A stretch of 64,000 bases of DNA from the NCBI GenBank assembly GCA_037439965.1, contig JBBIVB010000001.1, positions 31,895 through 95,894 of the forward strand, given 5' to 3'. A program made the translations under genes and the position numbers. The first letter of the stretch is position 1. Each line of letters begins with the position of its first letter. The notes under the pieces were generated by a model, which searched no databases, had not been told where the DNA came from, and saw only the letters and a list, made by a program, of their open reading frames with translations. This DNA comes from Candidatus Veblenbacteria bacterium (GTDB lineage: Bacteria; Patescibacteriota; Patescibacteriia; Veblenbacterales; UBA10138). Positions 3,675 to 48,027 of this stretch are shown one piece after another.

Positions 3675-6215
3675 TTGATGACTAAAGCTAAAATAGAAAT
3701 TAATCCCAAACCAAAAGCCGGCAACCAATCAAAAACTTGGCAATTCAAATTAAACAGCAAAAAAAAGCTTTTGGCTGTAGAAGGTTTTAGTAATGTAATT
3801 TCCCGTCATGTAATTAATTTGCGTCAACCTAAAGTTAGTAAAACACCGCAATCATCAGAAACTACAGCTTCTTGCCTTACTGCTACTTTTAATAAACAGA
3901 CTATAAAGTTTACTAAGGCAGATGTTAAACCGGTTAACTTTTTAAATGCCCAAAGTAGCTTATGGTATGTACCGTGGGTAAAATTAGAAAAGAAATTTCC
4001 TTTGCTTAGAGGTTTAACTATTCTTTTTTTAGCTGAGGTAGTTTATTGGTTTATTTATCACTGCTTAAAGTTTTTTGTTATTATCAGCTGGAAGTTATAT
4101 TTACAAACCAGCCACATTGTTAAAAGTATTTTAGAGGATTTAGCTTATTTTTTTGAATTATTAAGTTGCTCTTTAAAATTTTTAATTACACCCTGGTCTG
4201 CTTTGAAACCACGGCCTCAAAAGATTAATACTCATTTTATAGTGCCGCAACTTAAACAAATTACTGTTTTTATATTTATTCTATTTTTAATATTAGCGCC
4301 ACTTAAAATTTTATCTTTATGGAGATCACTTACCAGTGTCAAAGGATATTTAACCTCCTATGCTAACGCGGCTTTAGGAACTTTTACTAGCGCTAGTGAA
4401 AATTTATTTTCCGGAGAATACCTTAAAGCCCGCGAAAATTTTATAACGGCGGCTAAATATGTTAATGAGGCGGTTACCAATTTAGATAAAGCGACTGAAG
4501 AAATAGGTGTGCTATTAAACAATCCTTTAATTTTAGGGGCCAAGCTTAATTCCACAGAAAAATTATTAGCTGCTGCTAAAGAATTAAGTGAGGTAGGAAT
4601 TATTTTTAGCCATACTTTTGATGTTTTATCAGAAGCATCAAACAAACAATTAAATGATATAGAATTAGCTAATAAGACCTTAGTTTTAAAACAAGCTTTA
4701 TTAGATACCCAACTAAAAATATCGCAAAGTTACTTATTATTGCAAGAAGTTAATCCTAAAGAATTCCCTAGTGACTTAGCTCAGCAAGTTACTGAACTTA
4801 AATTATTATTAGCTGATTTACAGAAATTTATCCGTAATTTTTCAGCTGTACCAGAACTGATTAGTGTCTTAGTTCCTCCAGTAGGTCAAAAAACCTACTT
4901 ATTAGTATTTCAAAATTATTCAGAATTAAGACCTAGCGGCGGATTTATTGGCAGCTTAGCTTTTATTTATTTACAAGATGGTAAAATCACTAAGATTCAG
5001 ATTCCTGGCGGAGGACCTTATGATTTACAAGGACAGTTGCCGTATAAACTTATACCCCCAAAACCCTTGACTCTAATTAATCCACTTTGGCAATTACAGG
5101 ACAGTAATTGGTATTTCGATTTTCCTAAATCAGCACAAAATATCGCTTGGTTTGTTGAACAAAGTTGGCAAATTAAATTAGATGGGGTAATCAGCCTTAA
5201 CCCCGATGTAATAATTGAATTGTTAAAATTCACCGGCCCTATTGAGTTTACTAAATATAATAAGATAATTACTGCCGAAAATTTTATTCGCGAAACACAA
5301 GAAGCGGTAGATTTAGAATATGAAAAAACCCAAAATAGACCTAAAAAATTTATTGCTGATTTAGCGCCTCTCATCTTAGATCGTTTGCTTAAAAATAATT
5401 CAAAAAATATTTTTACTATTTATCAAACACTAAGCGAGATGTTAAAGAAAAAAAGTATTCAGCTTTATGTTACCGATACAACTGCAGAACAATTAATTAC
5501 CGATTTAGGCTGGGATGGGAGAGTGGCTCAATACGGCGGTGATTATTTAGCTATCGTACGTACTAACATTGGCGGCGGCAAAACTGATTTAGTCATAGAA
5601 GAAAAAGTTAACCATCAACTAACCATTAATCCAGATGGCCGATTAATAGCCACAATTAATTTTACCAGACATCATTTAGGCGATCCTTTTGATATATTTT
5701 ATCAGCGGCAAAATGTTTCCTGGCTTAAATTTTATGTACCCCAGAATAGTATTTTATTAGAAGCTAAAGGCTTTGATACTATAGAGGCCAATCGTTTTAA
5801 AACTGTGCCAGCAGAAGCTTTTGAGCACAATCTTTTTTCTGACGATCAAATAATAGAGCAGGTTAATAATTCTTCTACCACCATCGGGCAAGAATATGGC
5901 AAAACTTATTTTGCTAACTGGTTAACTTTAAAACCTGGCGAAAGTAAAACTGTTACGCTTACTTATCAACTACCATTTACTTTAGCAGACTTAACAGATG
6001 ATAATAAATTTTATAATTATCAAATATTTTTTCAAAGACAATCAGGAGTGAAGCCTCTATCTTTTACTACTACTGTTAATAAACCAGTTGATTTAATAGT
6101 TAAATGGCAAGAAGCATCTGGAAATTTACAGGTAATGGGAAAGCCGTTTCACTGGCAGGGTGATTGGCAAACCGATAGCTATTATGCTCTATTATTAGAG
6201 AAAATTAAGGAGTGA
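3675..6215 (+). CDS. Large membrane-anchored DUF4012-like protein of unknown function
   Basis: 846 aa ORF with hydrophobic helices near residues 110-220. Central ELRPSGGFIGSLAFIYLQDG segment matches the conserved RPxGGFIGS core I recall for DUF4012 proteins, which often sit in cell-wall polysaccharide clusters. Confidence 0.5.
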   Translation: MMTKAKIEINPKPKAGNQSKTWQFKLNSKKKLLAVEGFSNVISRHVINLRQPKVSKTPQSSETTASCLTATFNKQTIKFTKADVKPVNFLNAQSSLWYVPWVKLEKKFPLLRGLTILFLAEVVYWFIYHCLKFFVIISWKLYLQTSHIVKSILEDLAYFFELLSCSLKFLITPWSALKPRPQKINTHFIVPQLKQITVFIFILFLILAPLKILSLWRSLTSVKGYLTSYANAALGTFTSASENLFSGEYLKARENFITAAKYVNEAVTNLDKATEEIGVLLNNPLILGAKLNSTEKLLAAAKELSEVGIIFSHTFDVLSEASNKQLNDIELANKTLVLKQALLDTQLKISQSYLLLQEVNPKEFPSDLAQQVTELKLLLADLQKFIRNFSAVPELISVLVPPVGQKTYLLVFQNYSELRPSGGFIGSLAFIYLQDGKITKIQIPGGGPYDLQGQLPYKLIPPKPLTLINPLWQLQDSNWYFDFPKSAQNIAWFVEQSWQIKLDGVISLNPDVIIELLKFTGPIEFTKYNKIITAENFIRETQEAVDLEYEKTQNRPKKFIADLAPLILDRLLKNNSKNIFTIYQTLSEMLKKKSIQLYVTDTTAEQLITDLGWDGRVAQYGGDYLAIVRTNIGGGKTDLVIEEKVNHQLTINPDGRLIATINFTRHHLGDPFDIFYQRQNVSWLKFYVPQNSILLEAKGFDTIEANRFKTVPAEAFEHNLFSDDQIIEQVNNSSTTIGQEYGKTYFANWLTLKPGESKTVTLTYQLPFTLADLTDDNKFYNYQIFFQRQSGVKPLSFTTTVNKPVDLIVKWQEASGNLQVMGKPFHWQGDWQTDSYYALLLEKIKE

Positions 6216-6269
6216 AGTAATAAAGTCTTGACAAAACGTTACTTTGGGTGTAGTCTAATAAGTTGTCAT

Positions 6270-6428
6270 ATATTGTCAAAAGATAAATGGAGGAATTTGG
6301 GAATGTACGGGAAGCCTGTACGATTAAAATCAACATAGATTTAAATTGTACTCTTCACTAGTTTGAACACCACTTTAATTAGGTCACTTCAAGCCTTTCT
6401 CAAACCTCCAGTTATCTTTTGACAATTT
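6270..6428. repeat. Pair of 24-bp inverted repeats (22/24 match) flanking a 111-bp core, in the murJ upstream region
   Basis: 6270-6293 atattgtcaaaagataaatggagg; the reverse complement of 6405-6428 is aaattgtcaaaagataactggagg. Confidence 0.55.
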
Positions 6429-6493
6429 TTATTAGTCAAAACCCCACCCGGCTATCAAACTAACGGGTACTCCAATGCTCTTTATTTCATAAT

Positions 6494-6513
6494 TTTCCTG
6501 TAAATACAGGAAA
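6494..6513. promoter_or_regulatory. Perfect 20-bp palindrome TTTCCTGTA-aa-TACAGGAAA, candidate operator
   Basis: 9-bp arms are exact reverse complements. Located about 160 bp upstream of the murJ start. Confidence 0.3.
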
Positions 6514-6550
6514 CTCGTCTAATTTATTTTAGGCGAACAACTCTCTTCTC

Positions 6551-6571
6551 AATTCTATTAAAAATAGAATT
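6551..6571. promoter_or_regulatory. Perfect 21-bp palindrome AATTCTATT-aaa-AATAGAATT, candidate operator or hairpin
   Basis: 9-bp arms are exact reverse complements. About 100 bp upstream of the murJ start. Confidence 0.3.
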
Positions 6572-6671
6572 AAAGAATGAAGTAATTAGTATTAAGAGTT
6601 CTTCTGTTAATTGGTAGCCAGGTGTGGTTTTGTATTCATTTTTTAAGAAAAAACGCTATAATTAATTTGTT

Positions 6672-8261
6672 ATGGATACAGCAACTGTACCATCGGTACC
6701 TAAATTTAGTGTTAGCACTAATGCATTAATTATTGGTTTCTTTTCTGTAGTTTCCAGAATTTTAGGGCTGTTGCGCGATCGTTTATTAGCTTCGCATTTT
6801 GGTGCTGGCGATGTATTGGATGCTTACTATGCTGCTTTTAAGCTACCTGATTTTATTTTTAATATATTTATTTTAGGGGCTTTGTCGTCTGCTTTTATTC
6901 CGGTATTTATTGAAGCCAGAAAACATCAAGGGGAAAGCATGGCTTGGCAAATAACCAATACTGTTTTGAACTTTCTTTTGTTGGTAATGTCTATTTTATG
7001 TTTGCTGAGTATCATCTTTGCTCCGCTATTTGTACCGGTCTTAACACCTGGATTTAGTCTAGCCAAACAAGCCCTAACTATTAATTTAACGCGTTTAATG
7101 ATGGTGGCCATAATTTTTTTGGCAGTAAGTAATTTATTTGGCGCCGTACTTAACTCCTATAAAAGATTTATTGCCTATGGCTTAGCTCCTGTGCTATACA
7201 ATATTGGCATTATCTTGGGTTTATTTATCTTGGTGCCGTTTTTTGGGCCATCTGGCTTAGCTGGTGGTGTATTATTAGGTGCTATACTTCATACTGCCTG
7301 TCAATTACCAACTATACGCCGTTTAGGTTGGCGTTGGGGTCTTAAATTTTTTCTGGCTGACTATTATTTCCAAAAAATCATTCGTTTAATGATTCCTCGC
7401 ACCTTAGGACTTGCTGTTTACTCTATTAATCAACTAGTGATTACTTATTTTGCTTCACTTTTGGCTAGTGGTAGTCTAGCTGCCTTTGTTTTAGCTACCA
7501 ACTTACAAAGTTTTCCTATTAATGTTTTTGGTGTGTCATTGGCCATAGCAGTTTTTCCTATCTTTAGTGAGTCCTTTGCTAATAACAAAAAACAAGAATT
7601 AATAGAACATTTAGCTAATTCTCTTAAAAGGGTATTGTTTTTCACTATACCTTTAAGCGTACTATTTTTAGTACTAAGAGCCCAAGTAGTTAGAATAATT
7701 TTAGGCAGTGGCAATTTTGATTGGGGAGATACTATTAACACCGCTAATGTTTTTGCCTTCCTCTCATTATCTTTAGTAGCAGAAAGTTTATTACCTCTTA
7801 TAGCTCGCGCCTTTTACGCTCAACACGATACTAAAACTCCAGTCATGGTTAGTATCTTAAGTGTCTTTTTAAATTTAACCTTGGCAACCTTTTTAATTAA
7901 GCCTTTGGGTATCTCCGGACTAGCTATAGCTTATGTTTCTTCTACCATCATCAACTTTTTAATCTTAACTTATTTATTAAGTAAACGTTTAAGCTATATG
8001 AATGCTAAAAGTATTGTTAATTCAGGCTGGCAGATGTTACAAGCCAGCTTGTTAGCGGGGATGGTCTGTTATGGTATTTTACATTTACTAGCACCCTTGG
8101 TAGATATGCATTCCTTTGCGGGGATTTTTATTCAAGGCGTATCAGCTGGTTTGGCCGGTTTATTAACCTATCTGTTTGTGGCTCATAAACTAAAAATTCA
8201 GGAGGTGTGTTTTGTTAAAAAATATCTTAATCTAATTTTAGCTAAATTAAAATTAGCTTGA
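6672..8261 (+). CDS. murJ: MurJ/MviN family lipid II flippase (MOP superfamily)
   Basis: N-terminal ILGLLRDRLLASHFGAGDVLDAYYAAFKLPDFIFNIF is the hallmark MurJ signature. The protein is about 14-TM and 529 aa. Confidence 0.8.
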   Translation: MDTATVPSVPKFSVSTNALIIGFFSVVSRILGLLRDRLLASHFGAGDVLDAYYAAFKLPDFIFNIFILGALSSAFIPVFIEARKHQGESMAWQITNTVLNFLLLVMSILCLLSIIFAPLFVPVLTPGFSLAKQALTINLTRLMMVAIIFLAVSNLFGAVLNSYKRFIAYGLAPVLYNIGIILGLFILVPFFGPSGLAGGVLLGAILHTACQLPTIRRLGWRWGLKFFLADYYFQKIIRLMIPRTLGLAVYSINQLVITYFASLLASGSLAAFVLATNLQSFPINVFGVSLAIAVFPIFSESFANNKKQELIEHLANSLKRVLFFTIPLSVLFLVLRAQVVRIILGSGNFDWGDTINTANVFAFLSLSLVAESLLPLIARAFYAQHDTKTPVMVSILSVFLNLTLATFLIKPLGISGLAIAYVSSTIINFLILTYLLSKRLSYMNAKSIVNSGWQMLQASLLAGMVCYGILHLLAPLVDMHSFAGIFIQGVSAGLAGLLTYLFVAHKLKIQEVCFVKKYLNLILAKLKLA

Positions 8262-10247: not shown

Positions 10248-10628
10248 ATGGAAAAACAGCGCTGGTGGAGCCTATTAACCTCAAATTTATTTATATTAAT
10301 AGCGCTGACGGCGGTGCTTATTATAGCCATAGCGTTAGTTAAAAGCTTCATTCGTCGCCAAGAGTTAGCTCAAGAAATAGCTAAGATTAAAAATGACATT
10401 TCTGTTTACCGAACTAAACAAGAGGAACTGTCTAATTTAATTACTTATTTACAAAGCAGTGAATTTAAAGAAAAAGAAGCTAGGTTAAAATTTAATTTAA
10501 AAAAGCCAAATGAGCATGTAGTAGTACTGCCAAACGATGAGCAAAATAAAAAAATCGTCAACGAACCAACTACCTCAGCTAACCTAGCTAATTGGCAAAA
10601 ATGGTGGAATTATTTTTTTAACAAATAA
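10248..10628 (+). CDS. Septum formation initiator family protein (FtsB/DivIC-like)
   Basis: Single N-terminal TM helix, then a coiled coil, then the KEKEARLKFNLKKPNEHVVVL motif typical of FtsB/DivIC. An extended -10 (TGtTATAAT) lies 11 nt upstream of the ATG, with no obvious SD. Confidence 0.5.
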   Translation: MEKQRWWSLLTSNLFILIALTAVLIIAIALVKSFIRRQELAQEIAKIKNDISVYRTKQEELSNLITYLQSSEFKEKEARLKFNLKKPNEHVVVLPNDEQNKKIVNEPTTSANLANWQKWWNYFFNK

Positions 10629-11821: not shown

Positions 11822-11895
11822 TGGAGCCCCCTGCCAGAATCGAACTGACGTATGTGGTTTACGATACCACTGTTCTGCCACTGAACTAAGGGGGC
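11822..11895 (-). tRNA. tRNA-Thr (anticodon CGT), CCA encoded
   Basis: The reverse complement folds as a cloverleaf: acceptor GCCCCCT/AGGGGGC, anticodon stem GTGGT/ACCAC with loop ATCGTAA, T-arm GTTCGATTC, 3' UCCA. Confidence 0.8.
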
Positions 11896-12003: not shown

Positions 12004-12077
12004 TGGAGCGGGTAACGGGACTCGAACCCGTCTATCAACCTTGGGAAGGTCGCGTAATACCCCTATACTATACCCGC
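12004..12077 (-). tRNA. tRNA-Gly (anticodon CCC), CCA encoded
   Basis: The reverse complement has acceptor GCGGGTA/TACCCGC, U8-A9, anticodon stem CGACC/GGTTG with loop TTCCCAA, T-arm GGTTCGAGTCC, discriminator U plus CCA. Confidence 0.8.
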
Positions 12078-14084: not shown

Positions 14085-14158
14085 TGGGGGATCGTCTAAA
14101 GGTAGGACACCACCCTTTGGAGGTGGGTATCGTGGTTCGAGTCCACGTCCCCCAGCCA
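14085..14158 (+). tRNA. tRNA-Gln (anticodon TTG), CCA encoded
   Basis: Acceptor UGGGGGA/UCCCCCA with a U1:A72 pair and G73 discriminator (known GlnRS identity elements). Anticodon stem CCACC/GGTGG with loop CTTTGGA, T-arm GGTTCGAGTCC, 3' GCCA. Confidence 0.8.
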
Positions 14159-16704: not shown

Positions 16705-16728
16705 CAAGTGCTTAACATAAATTTCAGG

Positions 16729-16771
16729 CACCTTAATACAATTCTAATACAATTGTATTAGGGTGTTTTTG
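16729..16771 (+). terminator. Intrinsic terminator (15-bp stem, 7-nt loop, TTTTTG) after the T9SS-CTD gene
   Basis: CACCTTAATACAATT-ctaatac-AATTGTATTAGGGTG followed by TTTTTG. Confidence 0.55.
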
Positions 16772-16839
16772 TAAACTTTAAGTAGTTTCCTTCGTTTAAT
16801 TAATTGACTTAAATTACAAAAAACTATATAATTATCTCT

Positions 16840-47339: not shown

Positions 47340-48027
47340 CCAACACCACTTTTGATAATGGTTGTATAACCGTTTTTTTATGCTAACCGATAACGAGGGA
47401 AATTGTTTTAATAATTCAGAAGTTGTATTACTAATAAACCAATATTTAACTTTTTTATTTTTTCTTAATACTCTTAAAATTCTAAATGATTCGATTTCTT
47501 CCTACTGTACTAATGACTGTCGCTCGGGTGTGATGAGTAAACTAAAAGTAGACGCTAAATCAATATTATCAGTTGGCGTTATTTTTTTCTCTAATAATTT
47601 CATTTGGCTTAAATATTGATGACGAAATAGCTGATTATGCCATGCTAAAAGTTTTTTATTAGATAAGTTTCAGTTTTTACTTACGATTTTTTTTGACAAA
47701 GGCAAAATATTTTTTATTTAAATCAATTGCATCGTGATGAATTTTATCTATCTTGTTTGGATTATTTATTACCACGTATAAAGTATTTTAATAATTGACC
47801 TTAATTCATCTTTGATAAAATAAGAGCCAGTATTATCCAAATTCTCTATAATCCACAAACAACTTTTTAATACCTTTTTGACTATAAATTTTATCTTGCA
47901 AGTCATAAATACCATGCTGTGATTCAGATATGATATTTAAACCTACCCGCTTAATTTCAAAATTTTTCCGCCAAATTAATTTCATAACTTTTTAGTTGGT
48001 TTAATACACCAAACCAACCTTTATATC

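Follow-up and report, generated by a model that had tools for sequence, protein, structure and literature searches.

A conserved two-domain structured RNA encoded upstream of murJ in a clade of Patescibacteria

Patescibacteria (the candidate phyla radiation, CPR) are ultra-small organisms that account for much of the diversity of bacteria, and their tiny genomes contain very little non-coding DNA. What is encoded, in such a genome, by a 456-bp intergenic gap filled with inverted repeats and palindromes? The gap (positions 6216-6671) lies in a low-GC (about 33%) genome segment of Candidatus Veblenbacteria, 64 kb in length and hereafter called the window, between the stop codon of a DUF4012 gene (TGA, 6213-6215) and the start codon of the lipid II flippase gene murJ (ATG at 6672). 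An initial annotation had offered several answers, i.e. a structured regulatory RNA or a leader-peptide attenuator for the murJ-lepA operon, operator sites for a dimeric regulator, or a miniature mobile element. We demonstrate that the region is a structured RNA read on the + strand, composed of two domains (D1 and D2), conserved and covarying. The inverted repeats and palindromes are the helices of this uncatalogued two-domain RNA, which is non-coding, single-copy in the DNA examined and absent from Rfam.

The symmetric elements listed in the initial annotation are all present. The inverted repeats that it placed at 6270-6293 and 6405-6428 (22/24 matches) were delimited by the repeat search to 6272-6293 and 6405-6426 (21/22 complementary, separated by 111 nt). 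Both palindromes are exact and have 9-bp arms (TTTCCTGTA-aa-TACAGGAAA at 6494-6513 and AATTCTATT-aaa-AATAGAATT at 6551-6571), and a GGAGG is followed 9 nt later by the ATG of an 11-codon open reading frame (ORF; MYGKPVRLKST, 6303-6338). Overlooked at that stage were a second long inverted repeat (19/22 complementary), now recognized as the basal helix of D2, and a third hairpin (H2; Table 1). The proposed folding check gave a clear result: the minimum free energy of the + strand of 6216-6671 is -139 kcal/mol (z = -10.35), and none of 100 dinucleotide shuffles folded as well, while the z-score of the - strand is -5.95. In 25 other 456-nt windows of the same 64 kb, z was -0.12 +/- 0.98 (minimum -2.3); the script that gave these values returned -11.2 for the target, and no comparable folding was found in the other intergenic stretches of the window. 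In its own genome, the region thus stands out clearly. Only two other intergenic stretches, 16705-16839 (+) and 47790-48027 (-), reached even a moderately low value (z about -4), and these may be terminators or small structured elements.

Is this structure conserved? Syntenic loci were retrieved via MurJ homologues (MurJ 45-78% identical), and a metagenome pattern scan was performed with the most conserved block (GGTCNNTTCAAGCCTT...CCTCCA). The scan returned 19 loci (designated, like the others, by L numbers), of which 13 were true, providing 8 new distinct sequences; the remaining six (L093-L096, L098 and L110) were chance matches in GC-rich coding DNA and were rejected. Conservation upstream of orthologous murJ genes, on which the initial annotation had made its proposals depend, was evident: D1 occurs at 18 distinct loci of Patescibacteria, at 17 of them directly upstream of murJ and on the same strand, even where DUF4012 is no longer the upstream neighbour. 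Nucleotide conservation of the spacer persists even where the MurJ proteins are only 50-58% identical, and the distance from D1 to the murJ ATG in forms containing D1 alone is 12-75 nt.

Fifteen independent single-sequence folds converged on one common D1 architecture, a three-way junction closed by the helix P1 (Table 1). RNAalifold predicted 46 base pairs in D1, 25 of which show compensatory double changes, so that the covariance check suggested in the initial annotation supports an RNA. In the model-based alignment of 18 sequences (A6), 94.9% of the cells are paired, and none of 500 column shuffles reached the observed covariation; when the partners were slid by 1-3 columns as a control, pairing dropped to 36-55%. 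The strand is indicated by the score of the covariance model R1 on the window (125 bits for the + strand vs 27.6 bits for the - strand) and by the presence of G-U pairs in the alignment, which were counted toward the + strand. R1 also found D1, at 117-139 bits, in three loci outside its training set (L111 of Kerfeldbacteria, L112 of Veblenbacteria, and L113), all of them detected by the covariance model alone.

P1, P2 and P3 all covary. P1 comprises about 21 bp in the window (20-24 bp in most of the 18 copies), with an invariant UGGAGG/CCUCCA block as its cap. P2 has 5 bp, and the AUG of the non-conserved 11-codon ORF begins at the last base of its 5' strand. The apical part of P3 varies in length among the copies. 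The sequence of the P4 arm (GCUUGGAUACCA...UGGUCnCUUCAAGC) hardly varies. This arm shows no double changes in the 18-sequence alignment and varies by G-U/G-C/A-U swaps only; its structure is therefore plausible, but unproven by covariation. The most conserved nucleotides of D1 are located inside helices (the top of P1, P2 and P4) and not in the junctions. Pairwise complementarity over the unpaired columns of A6 revealed no convincing pseudoknots or tertiary pairs, and single-sequence and consensus folds gave a single architecture, without an alternative, mutually exclusive (antiterminator) pairing.

D2 is clade-specific and was found only in the window and four relatives, whose five copies were folded individually. 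It forms a long rod that ends in an apical multi-hairpin junction, and a conserved unpaired stretch, AACUCUCUUCUC, sits between the apical hairpins. The GGCUAC/GUAGCC core of D2 is common to the RNA of a more distant locus, L116, and a similar unpaired stretch (AAAyCUCUCUCCUC) is present in D2-like RNAs of L116, L115 and L001. The exposed CU-rich stretch looks like a single-strand binding site. We also observed a 19-nt direct repeat (6203-6221 / 6568-6586, 17/19 identical: AATTAAGGAGTGAAGTAAT / AATTAAAGAATGAAGTAAT) that joins the end of the DUF4012 ORF and the interior of D2; it may be a chance occurrence in AT-rich DNA.

Table 1. Features of the murJ upstream region and its flanking genes (window coordinates)
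Feature	Position	Strand	Remarks
DUF4012 gene	3675-6215		upstream neighbour
-35 box TTGACA of putative RNA promoter	6228-6233	+	conserved in 18/18 distinct loci (TTGACT in one)
-10 box TAGTCT of putative RNA promoter	6251-6256	+	17 nt after -35; TAnnnT kept in all orthologues
D1, conserved three-way-junction core	6272-6426	+	covariance model R1 and 18-sequence alignment A6
P1 closing helix, 5' strand	6272-6293	+	ends in invariant UGGAGG; left repeat of the initial annotation; 14/20 P1 pairs compensatory
P2, 5' strand, GGGAA (most relatives GAGAA)	6299-6303	+	pairs with 6396-6400; 3/5 pairs covary, 100% of cells paired
P3 arm: lower stem, GUACG/UGUAC stem, variable apical hairpin	6309-6356	+	8/11 pairs compensatory
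P4 arm, GyUUGrAyACCA ... GGUCnCUUCAAGC	6361-6394	+	nearly invariant sequence; 10 pairs 100% paired
P2, 3' strand, UUUCU (most relatives UUCUC)	6396-6400	+	alignment A6
P1 closing helix, 3' strand	6405-6426	+	starts with invariant CCUCCA; right repeat of the initial annotation; followed by U5 (6426-6430)
D2, long rod with apical multi-hairpin junction	6437-6632	+	second inverted repeat; single-sequence folds of five D2-bearing loci
D2 basal helix, about 22 bp	6437-6458 / 6611-6632	+	covaries
D2 hairpin H1, 20-bp palindrome	6494-6513	+	hairpin kept, sequence different, in L081, L083, L086 and L089
D2 hairpin H2, CGUCUAA...UUAGGCG	6516-6535	+	compensated in L081 (CGUCAAA...UUUGACG); hairpin kept in others
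Unpaired pyrimidine-rich motif, AACAACUCUCUUCUC	6536-6550	+	AACUCUCU(U/C)C conserved in 5/5 D2 copies
D2 hairpin H3, 21-bp palindrome	6551-6571	+	hairpin kept, other sequences, in relatives
U-rich tract UUUUGUAUUCAUUUUUU	6629-6646	+	after D2 basal helix; putative 3' end of the RNA
TATAAT, putative -10 of a leaderless-type murJ promoter	6657-6662	+	outside the RNA; 9 nt before murJ ATG
murJ	6672-8261	+	lipid II flippase gene

The genes downstream of murJ are lepA, divIC and a SurA-like gene, each of them encoded on the + strand.

How far does this RNA extend beyond the window and its close relatives? In the more distant relatives L002, L116, L115 and L001, which lack a clear D1, the site is nevertheless occupied by a highly structured RNA. 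The RNA of L002 (2718-2885, z about -10) is structurally analogous, with a TTGACA-17-TATAGT promoter and a D1-like closing helix of 14+7 bp ending in CUGGGGG/CCUCCAG; its core is a different three-way structure, and R1 did not detect it. Downstream of this RNA come a distinct terminator hairpin of canonical type and, next, the murJ promoter TGGTATAAT. In L116 (~2290-2415), L115 (~2115-2270) and L001 (~2705-2845), a shorter D2-like RNA is found on its own upstream of murJ, each with a TTGACA-type promoter and with a closing helix of the form AAGCUG.../...CAGCUUUUU, and in L116 and L115 a good murJ promoter lies downstream of the RNA. L116 additionally contains a weak D1-like match (1454-1609, 33.7 bits) one gene upstream of the D2-like RNA and murJ, where it precedes a 157-amino-acid membrane-protein-like ORF bearing a Shine-Dalgarno sequence. 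Since D1-like and D2-like elements are apart in L116 and D2-like RNAs are found alone elsewhere, D1 and D2 behave as separable modules. In L086 an ORF is inserted between the RNA and murJ, as happens between the D1-like and D2-like elements of L116; the inserted ORFs of L086, L116 and L115 are mutually unrelated, and no informative Pfam domain was recognized in any of them.

Beyond these loci, D1 was absent from the matches listed from a MurJ profile search of genome contigs (relatives of 32-51% identity), and 80 more distant murJ loci contained neither D1 nor the CU motif, with the exception of L001. In L114 only 79 bp separate DUF4012 from murJ, and there is no RNA. D1 and D2 are thus confined to one clade of Patescibacteria and are usually located just upstream of murJ. 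Two further observations were made at these loci. In L111, a GC-rich, hairpin-rich stretch between DUF4012 and the RNA promoter (2488-2740) contains GCTTGGATAC, i.e. words of the P4 5' strand, and may represent a degenerate duplicate or a further RNA. In L001, the sequence at ~2575-2605, shortly before the RNA promoter, resembles the 3' half of a tRNA (GGTTCGAACCCC...CCACCA), at a site where Rfam listed no tRNA; it may be a fragment or an intron-containing tRNA, a type reported for Patescibacteria.

The RNA could not be assigned to any known family. Rfam 15 was scanned with the window at gathering thresholds, with the region at E <= 10 and with eight homologous loci. No match reached the gathering thresholds in the region or its homologues, and the matches at E <= 10 were at chance level (10-20 bits; MIR1435, rteR, Phe_leader and ARRPOF). 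The models that failed to match include those of 6S RNA, signal recognition particle (SRP) RNA, RNase P, tmRNA, the known riboswitches, raiA, OLE, ROOL and GOLLD. ARAGORN and Tandem Repeats Finder recognized no tRNA, tmRNA or tandem repeats in the region, and in the literature we found no description of a murJ/mviN-associated RNA motif or of relevant CPR structured RNAs. The sole Rfam/ARAGORN matches in the 64 kb are three tRNA genes: tRNA-Thr(CGU) (11822-11895, -), tRNA-Gly(CCC) (12004-12077, -) and tRNA-Gln(UUG) (14085-14158, +). AsrC is an antisense RNA of rseC mRNA. The weak AsrC matches obtained in L102, L105, L106, L115 and L116 are located inside lepA on the opposite strand; they reflect lepA conservation rather than an RNA gene and were rejected. 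We also discarded several resemblances noticed by eye and unsupported by the covariance models or the covariation pattern: to RNase P CR-I (GGAGGAA...), SRP helix 8 (ACCA/GGUC), the three-way junction of 5S rRNA, the T-box (UGG/ACCA), the sarcin-ricin loop (GUACGA), and retron msr-msd, which has similar flanking repeats, whereas no reverse transcriptase gene is present here.

How is such an RNA made, and how is murJ expressed behind it? A motif resembling a sigma-70-type promoter (TTGACA or TTGACT, a spacer of 16 or 17 nt, TAnnnT) is found at all 18 loci, a few to about 30 nt upstream of P1; in the window, transcription would start at about 6262. The - strand also carries a promoter-like match (TTGACA-16-TAGACT, 6279-6252), made up of the palindromic P1 arm and the + strand -10 region, which is probably a by-product of symmetry. 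At the other end, about 14 of the 18 loci have a U tract behind the last closing helix, i.e. directly behind P1 in the D1-only forms and behind the D2 basal helix in the D1+D2 forms. L102 lacks such a tract altogether, and that of L112 is weak or missing. A simple terminator scanner called no terminator at the U tract, because the "loop" is here a whole domain.

Downstream of the U tract, a TATAAT or TATACT is located 7-13 nt before the murJ ATG in 11 of the 18 loci, the window included. The D2-bearing relatives share the form AAAAnCGyTATAAT, and seven D1-only loci have TATACT or TATAAT. In several of these 11 loci the U tract overlaps a TTGAAT-like -35 box. In L116, L115 and L002 a clear RNA terminator is followed by TTGCGA-17-TATAAT, TGCTAAAAT or TGGTATAAT. 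A separate murJ promoter is therefore a plausible reading of the sequence, and it would fit the habits of this genome. None of the genes in the window has a Shine-Dalgarno sequence, TATAAT is located 6-7 nt before the ATG of the first genes at 10248, 16840, 29779 (-) and 61055 (-), and TATAAT or TGnTATAAT precedes the ATG by 6-12 nt at several operon-first genes (e.g. 25992), which suggests that leaderless mRNAs are the norm.

The explanation that we prefer, and hold with about as much confidence as doubt, is that the 456-bp "leader" encodes a structured noncoding RNA about 380 nt in length, independently transcribed and terminator-ended, which acts in a stable protein-bound form or in trans. 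The RNA would be read on the + strand from its own TTGACA-17-TAGTCT promoter, and transcription would mostly stop at the U tract after the last closing helix. The product would be a stable free RNA, about 380 nt long here and about 150-170 nt in D1-only relatives, with both ends clamped by pairing. murJ would be expressed separately from its own TATAAT as a leaderless or nearly leaderless mRNA, like other operons of this genome; it is the combination of the missing Shine-Dalgarno sequences and the TATAAT conserved 9 nt before the murJ ATG that favours an independently transcribed small RNA. The sequence-invariant helices of D1 may provide a recognition surface, and the CU-rich loop of D2 may serve as a single-stranded binding site. 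Given the consensus promoter, the closing helix of about two turns that joins the two ends, and the invariant helices, an abundant protein-bound or trans-acting RNA seems to fit better than a metabolite switch. Read-through past the U tract could add murJ-lepA transcripts, and some cis effect on murJ, maybe ancestral, is thus possible.

A number of observations weigh against this explanation. The position of D1 directly upstream of murJ is a pattern typical of cis-regulatory elements. No promoter is visible between the RNA and murJ in L102, L112, L113, L092 and L106, so at these loci the murJ transcript would have to begin with the RNA, and in L113 the murJ ATG is only 12 nt from a U8 tract. 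In the window itself, the murJ TATAAT lacks a good -35 box. Promoter-like matches occur in this AT-rich DNA at chance frequency (80 found vs 80.4 expected), and therefore it is conservation alone that carries weight. The putative terminator is unusual in that its helix closes a domain of 110-150 nt instead of a small hairpin. Pairing of the CU motif with the murJ 5' region was no better than in controls (0.14-0.97 of the controls were as good). Finally, the start and end of the RNA and the murJ promoter are all inferred from sequence.

The competing explanations fare differently against this evidence. Very little probability remains for the view that the region consists of one or two miniature inverted-repeat transposable elements (MITEs) with the 24-bp repeats as termini. 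Long terminal inverted repeats around a core of about 110 bp are indeed what a MITE would show, but the search for further copies found none in the 64-kb window by either blastn or the covariance model, 18 distinct genomes have the element at one and the same orthologous site, 6272-6426 is not bordered by a target-site duplication, and there is a conserved promoter upstream. Moreover, the arms differ between genomes by compensatory changes that keep the pairing, as expected of an RNA helix. We give equally little credence to the palindromes as DNA operators for a dimeric regulator, or to the 11-codon ORF as a regulatory leader peptide, despite the two exact palindromes and the GGAGG-N9-ATG arrangement found in 16 of the 18 copies. 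The sequences of H1 and H3 differ in L081, L083, L086 and L089, and only the hairpin potential is retained. The ORF is frame-shifted in the closest relative (L081), is reduced to 2 codons in L091, L102, L106 and L108, exceeds 35 codons in others without conserved residues, and loses its AUG to AUA in L103 and L105; with length, frame and start codon all unconserved, there is no conserved coding potential. The genome does not use Shine-Dalgarno sequences, and the GGAGG is paired to CCUCC in the closing helix. On this comparative evidence, the MITE, operator and leader-peptide readings are effectively refuted. What survives of the initial annotation is the structured RNA; its role in regulating murJ-lepA is only a candidate, with murJ seemingly equipped with a leaderless-type promoter of its own downstream of the U tract.

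That candidate role deserves to be taken seriously, and we regard it as possible, though distinctly less probable than a free RNA. The RNA would then be a cis-acting 5' leader or attenuator of murJ-lepA, with the upstream promoter serving the operon: a ligand or protein would stabilize D1 and so unite both strands of the closing helix, and this helix and the U tract would terminate transcription before murJ, in a riboswitch-like or protein-mediated manner. The same-strand location next to murJ, kept when the upstream neighbour changes, and the five loci without a recognizable second promoter speak for it; a complex, covarying three-way junction with a terminator-like element behind it is what transcriptional riboswitches usually look like, and a consensus TTGACA ahead of a gene for a low-abundance membrane protein would be sensible if transcription were heavily attenuated. 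However, a closing helix of 20-24 bp should form without any ligand, no antiterminator pairing was found, the conserved bases lie in helices rather than in junctions, unlike in most aptamers, and no candidate ligand is known. The -10 box at leaderless distance in 11 of the 18 loci, the terminator and promoter arrangements of L002, L116 and L115, and the ORFs inserted in L086 and L116 also argue against it. A more specific version, in which D1 senses a cell-envelope precursor (lipid II-related or a nucleotide-sugar), as part of a new class of riboswitch or of an attenuator that responds to a protein, and gates murJ-lepA with the two-turn closing helix of D1 itself serving as terminator stem, seems unlikely to us; we know of no description of such a design among the known riboswitches. 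It is also improbable, though hardly absurd, that the closing helices are RNase III processing stems (cf. those flanking rRNAs), which would free the D1 core of about 110 nt and the D2 core from a DUF4012-RNA-murJ transcript; we are similarly doubtful that the same cut sets the 5' end of murJ mRNA, the element being mainly an insulator or processing site between two operons. P1 is held at about two helical turns in most copies although its sequence varies freely, the D2 basal helix has a similar length (~22 bp), and RNase III is retained in CPR genomes (PMC12641178). Processing would also account for loci without a U tract (e.g. L102). It leaves unexplained the conserved dedicated promoter and the sequence-invariant inner core, and the predicted cleavage is compatible with either a free RNA or a leader rather than exclusive of them.

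An RNA of 150-380 nt with a consensus promoter, strong covariation and helices that scarcely vary in sequence, kept beside murJ where the MurJ proteins are only about 50% identical, very likely plays an important role. To our knowledge, the regulatory and structural RNAs of Patescibacteria are almost unexplored. A free RNA, which we prefer, would imply that these organisms possess a ribonucleoprotein or trans-regulator not recognized so far. A leader would provide the first described case of control of murJ at the RNA level, and a riboswitch-like attenuator, if true, would belong to bacteria in which leaderless mRNAs otherwise serve most operons. Annotators gain a new family (model R1, alignment A6), and the long "symmetric" intergenic regions of CPR genomes may be RNA genes.

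To which known systems is this RNA closest? Like 6S RNA, 4.5S/SRP RNA and Y RNA, it has a promoter of the consensus type, a helix of about two turns that holds both ends together, a length of 150-200 nt for D1 alone, and a single copy in the DNA examined. Unlike 6S RNA, D1 has no large central bubble, and unlike SRP RNA it has no GNRA-capped helix 8 with SRP loops; neither family was matched in Rfam even at E <= 10, and D1, in contrast to these housekeeping RNAs, is limited to one CPR clade. RsaE/RoxS-type RNAs are trans-acting small RNAs with C/U-rich unpaired seeds that usually target purine-rich Shine-Dalgarno sites. D2 and the D2-like RNAs similarly expose a CU-rich stretch (AACUCUCUUCUC / AAAUCUCUCUCCUC) atop a long stem, together with a promoter and a U-tract end, but there is no homology, pairing with the murJ 5' region does not exceed that of controls, and the genome lacks purine-rich Shine-Dalgarno sites.

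With transcriptional riboswitches and protein-dependent attenuators, the RNA shares its same-strand position upstream of a consistent gene, a covarying three-way junction and a U tract after a helix. It differs from them in having no detectable antiterminator fold, in that its conserved bases are for the most part helical, in the putative second promoter that most loci show at leaderless distance, and in the lack of a Shine-Dalgarno sequence to sequester. A further point of comparison is the raiA motif RNA, an orphan large structured noncoding RNA found beside one gene family. There is no similarity to RNAs of this type in sequence or by covariance model, the host clade (Patescibacteria) and the neighbouring gene (murJ) are different, and the terminator is here the RNA's own closing helix of about 21 bp. 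The resemblance lies in the general plan: a complex, covarying multi-stem RNA of 150-400 nt, consistently located upstream of one gene family, whose terminator-like end leaves cis and trans action ambiguous and for which no ligand or partner is known. The RNA described here is therefore a new family of a familiar kind, i.e. an orphan structured noncoding RNA or leader.

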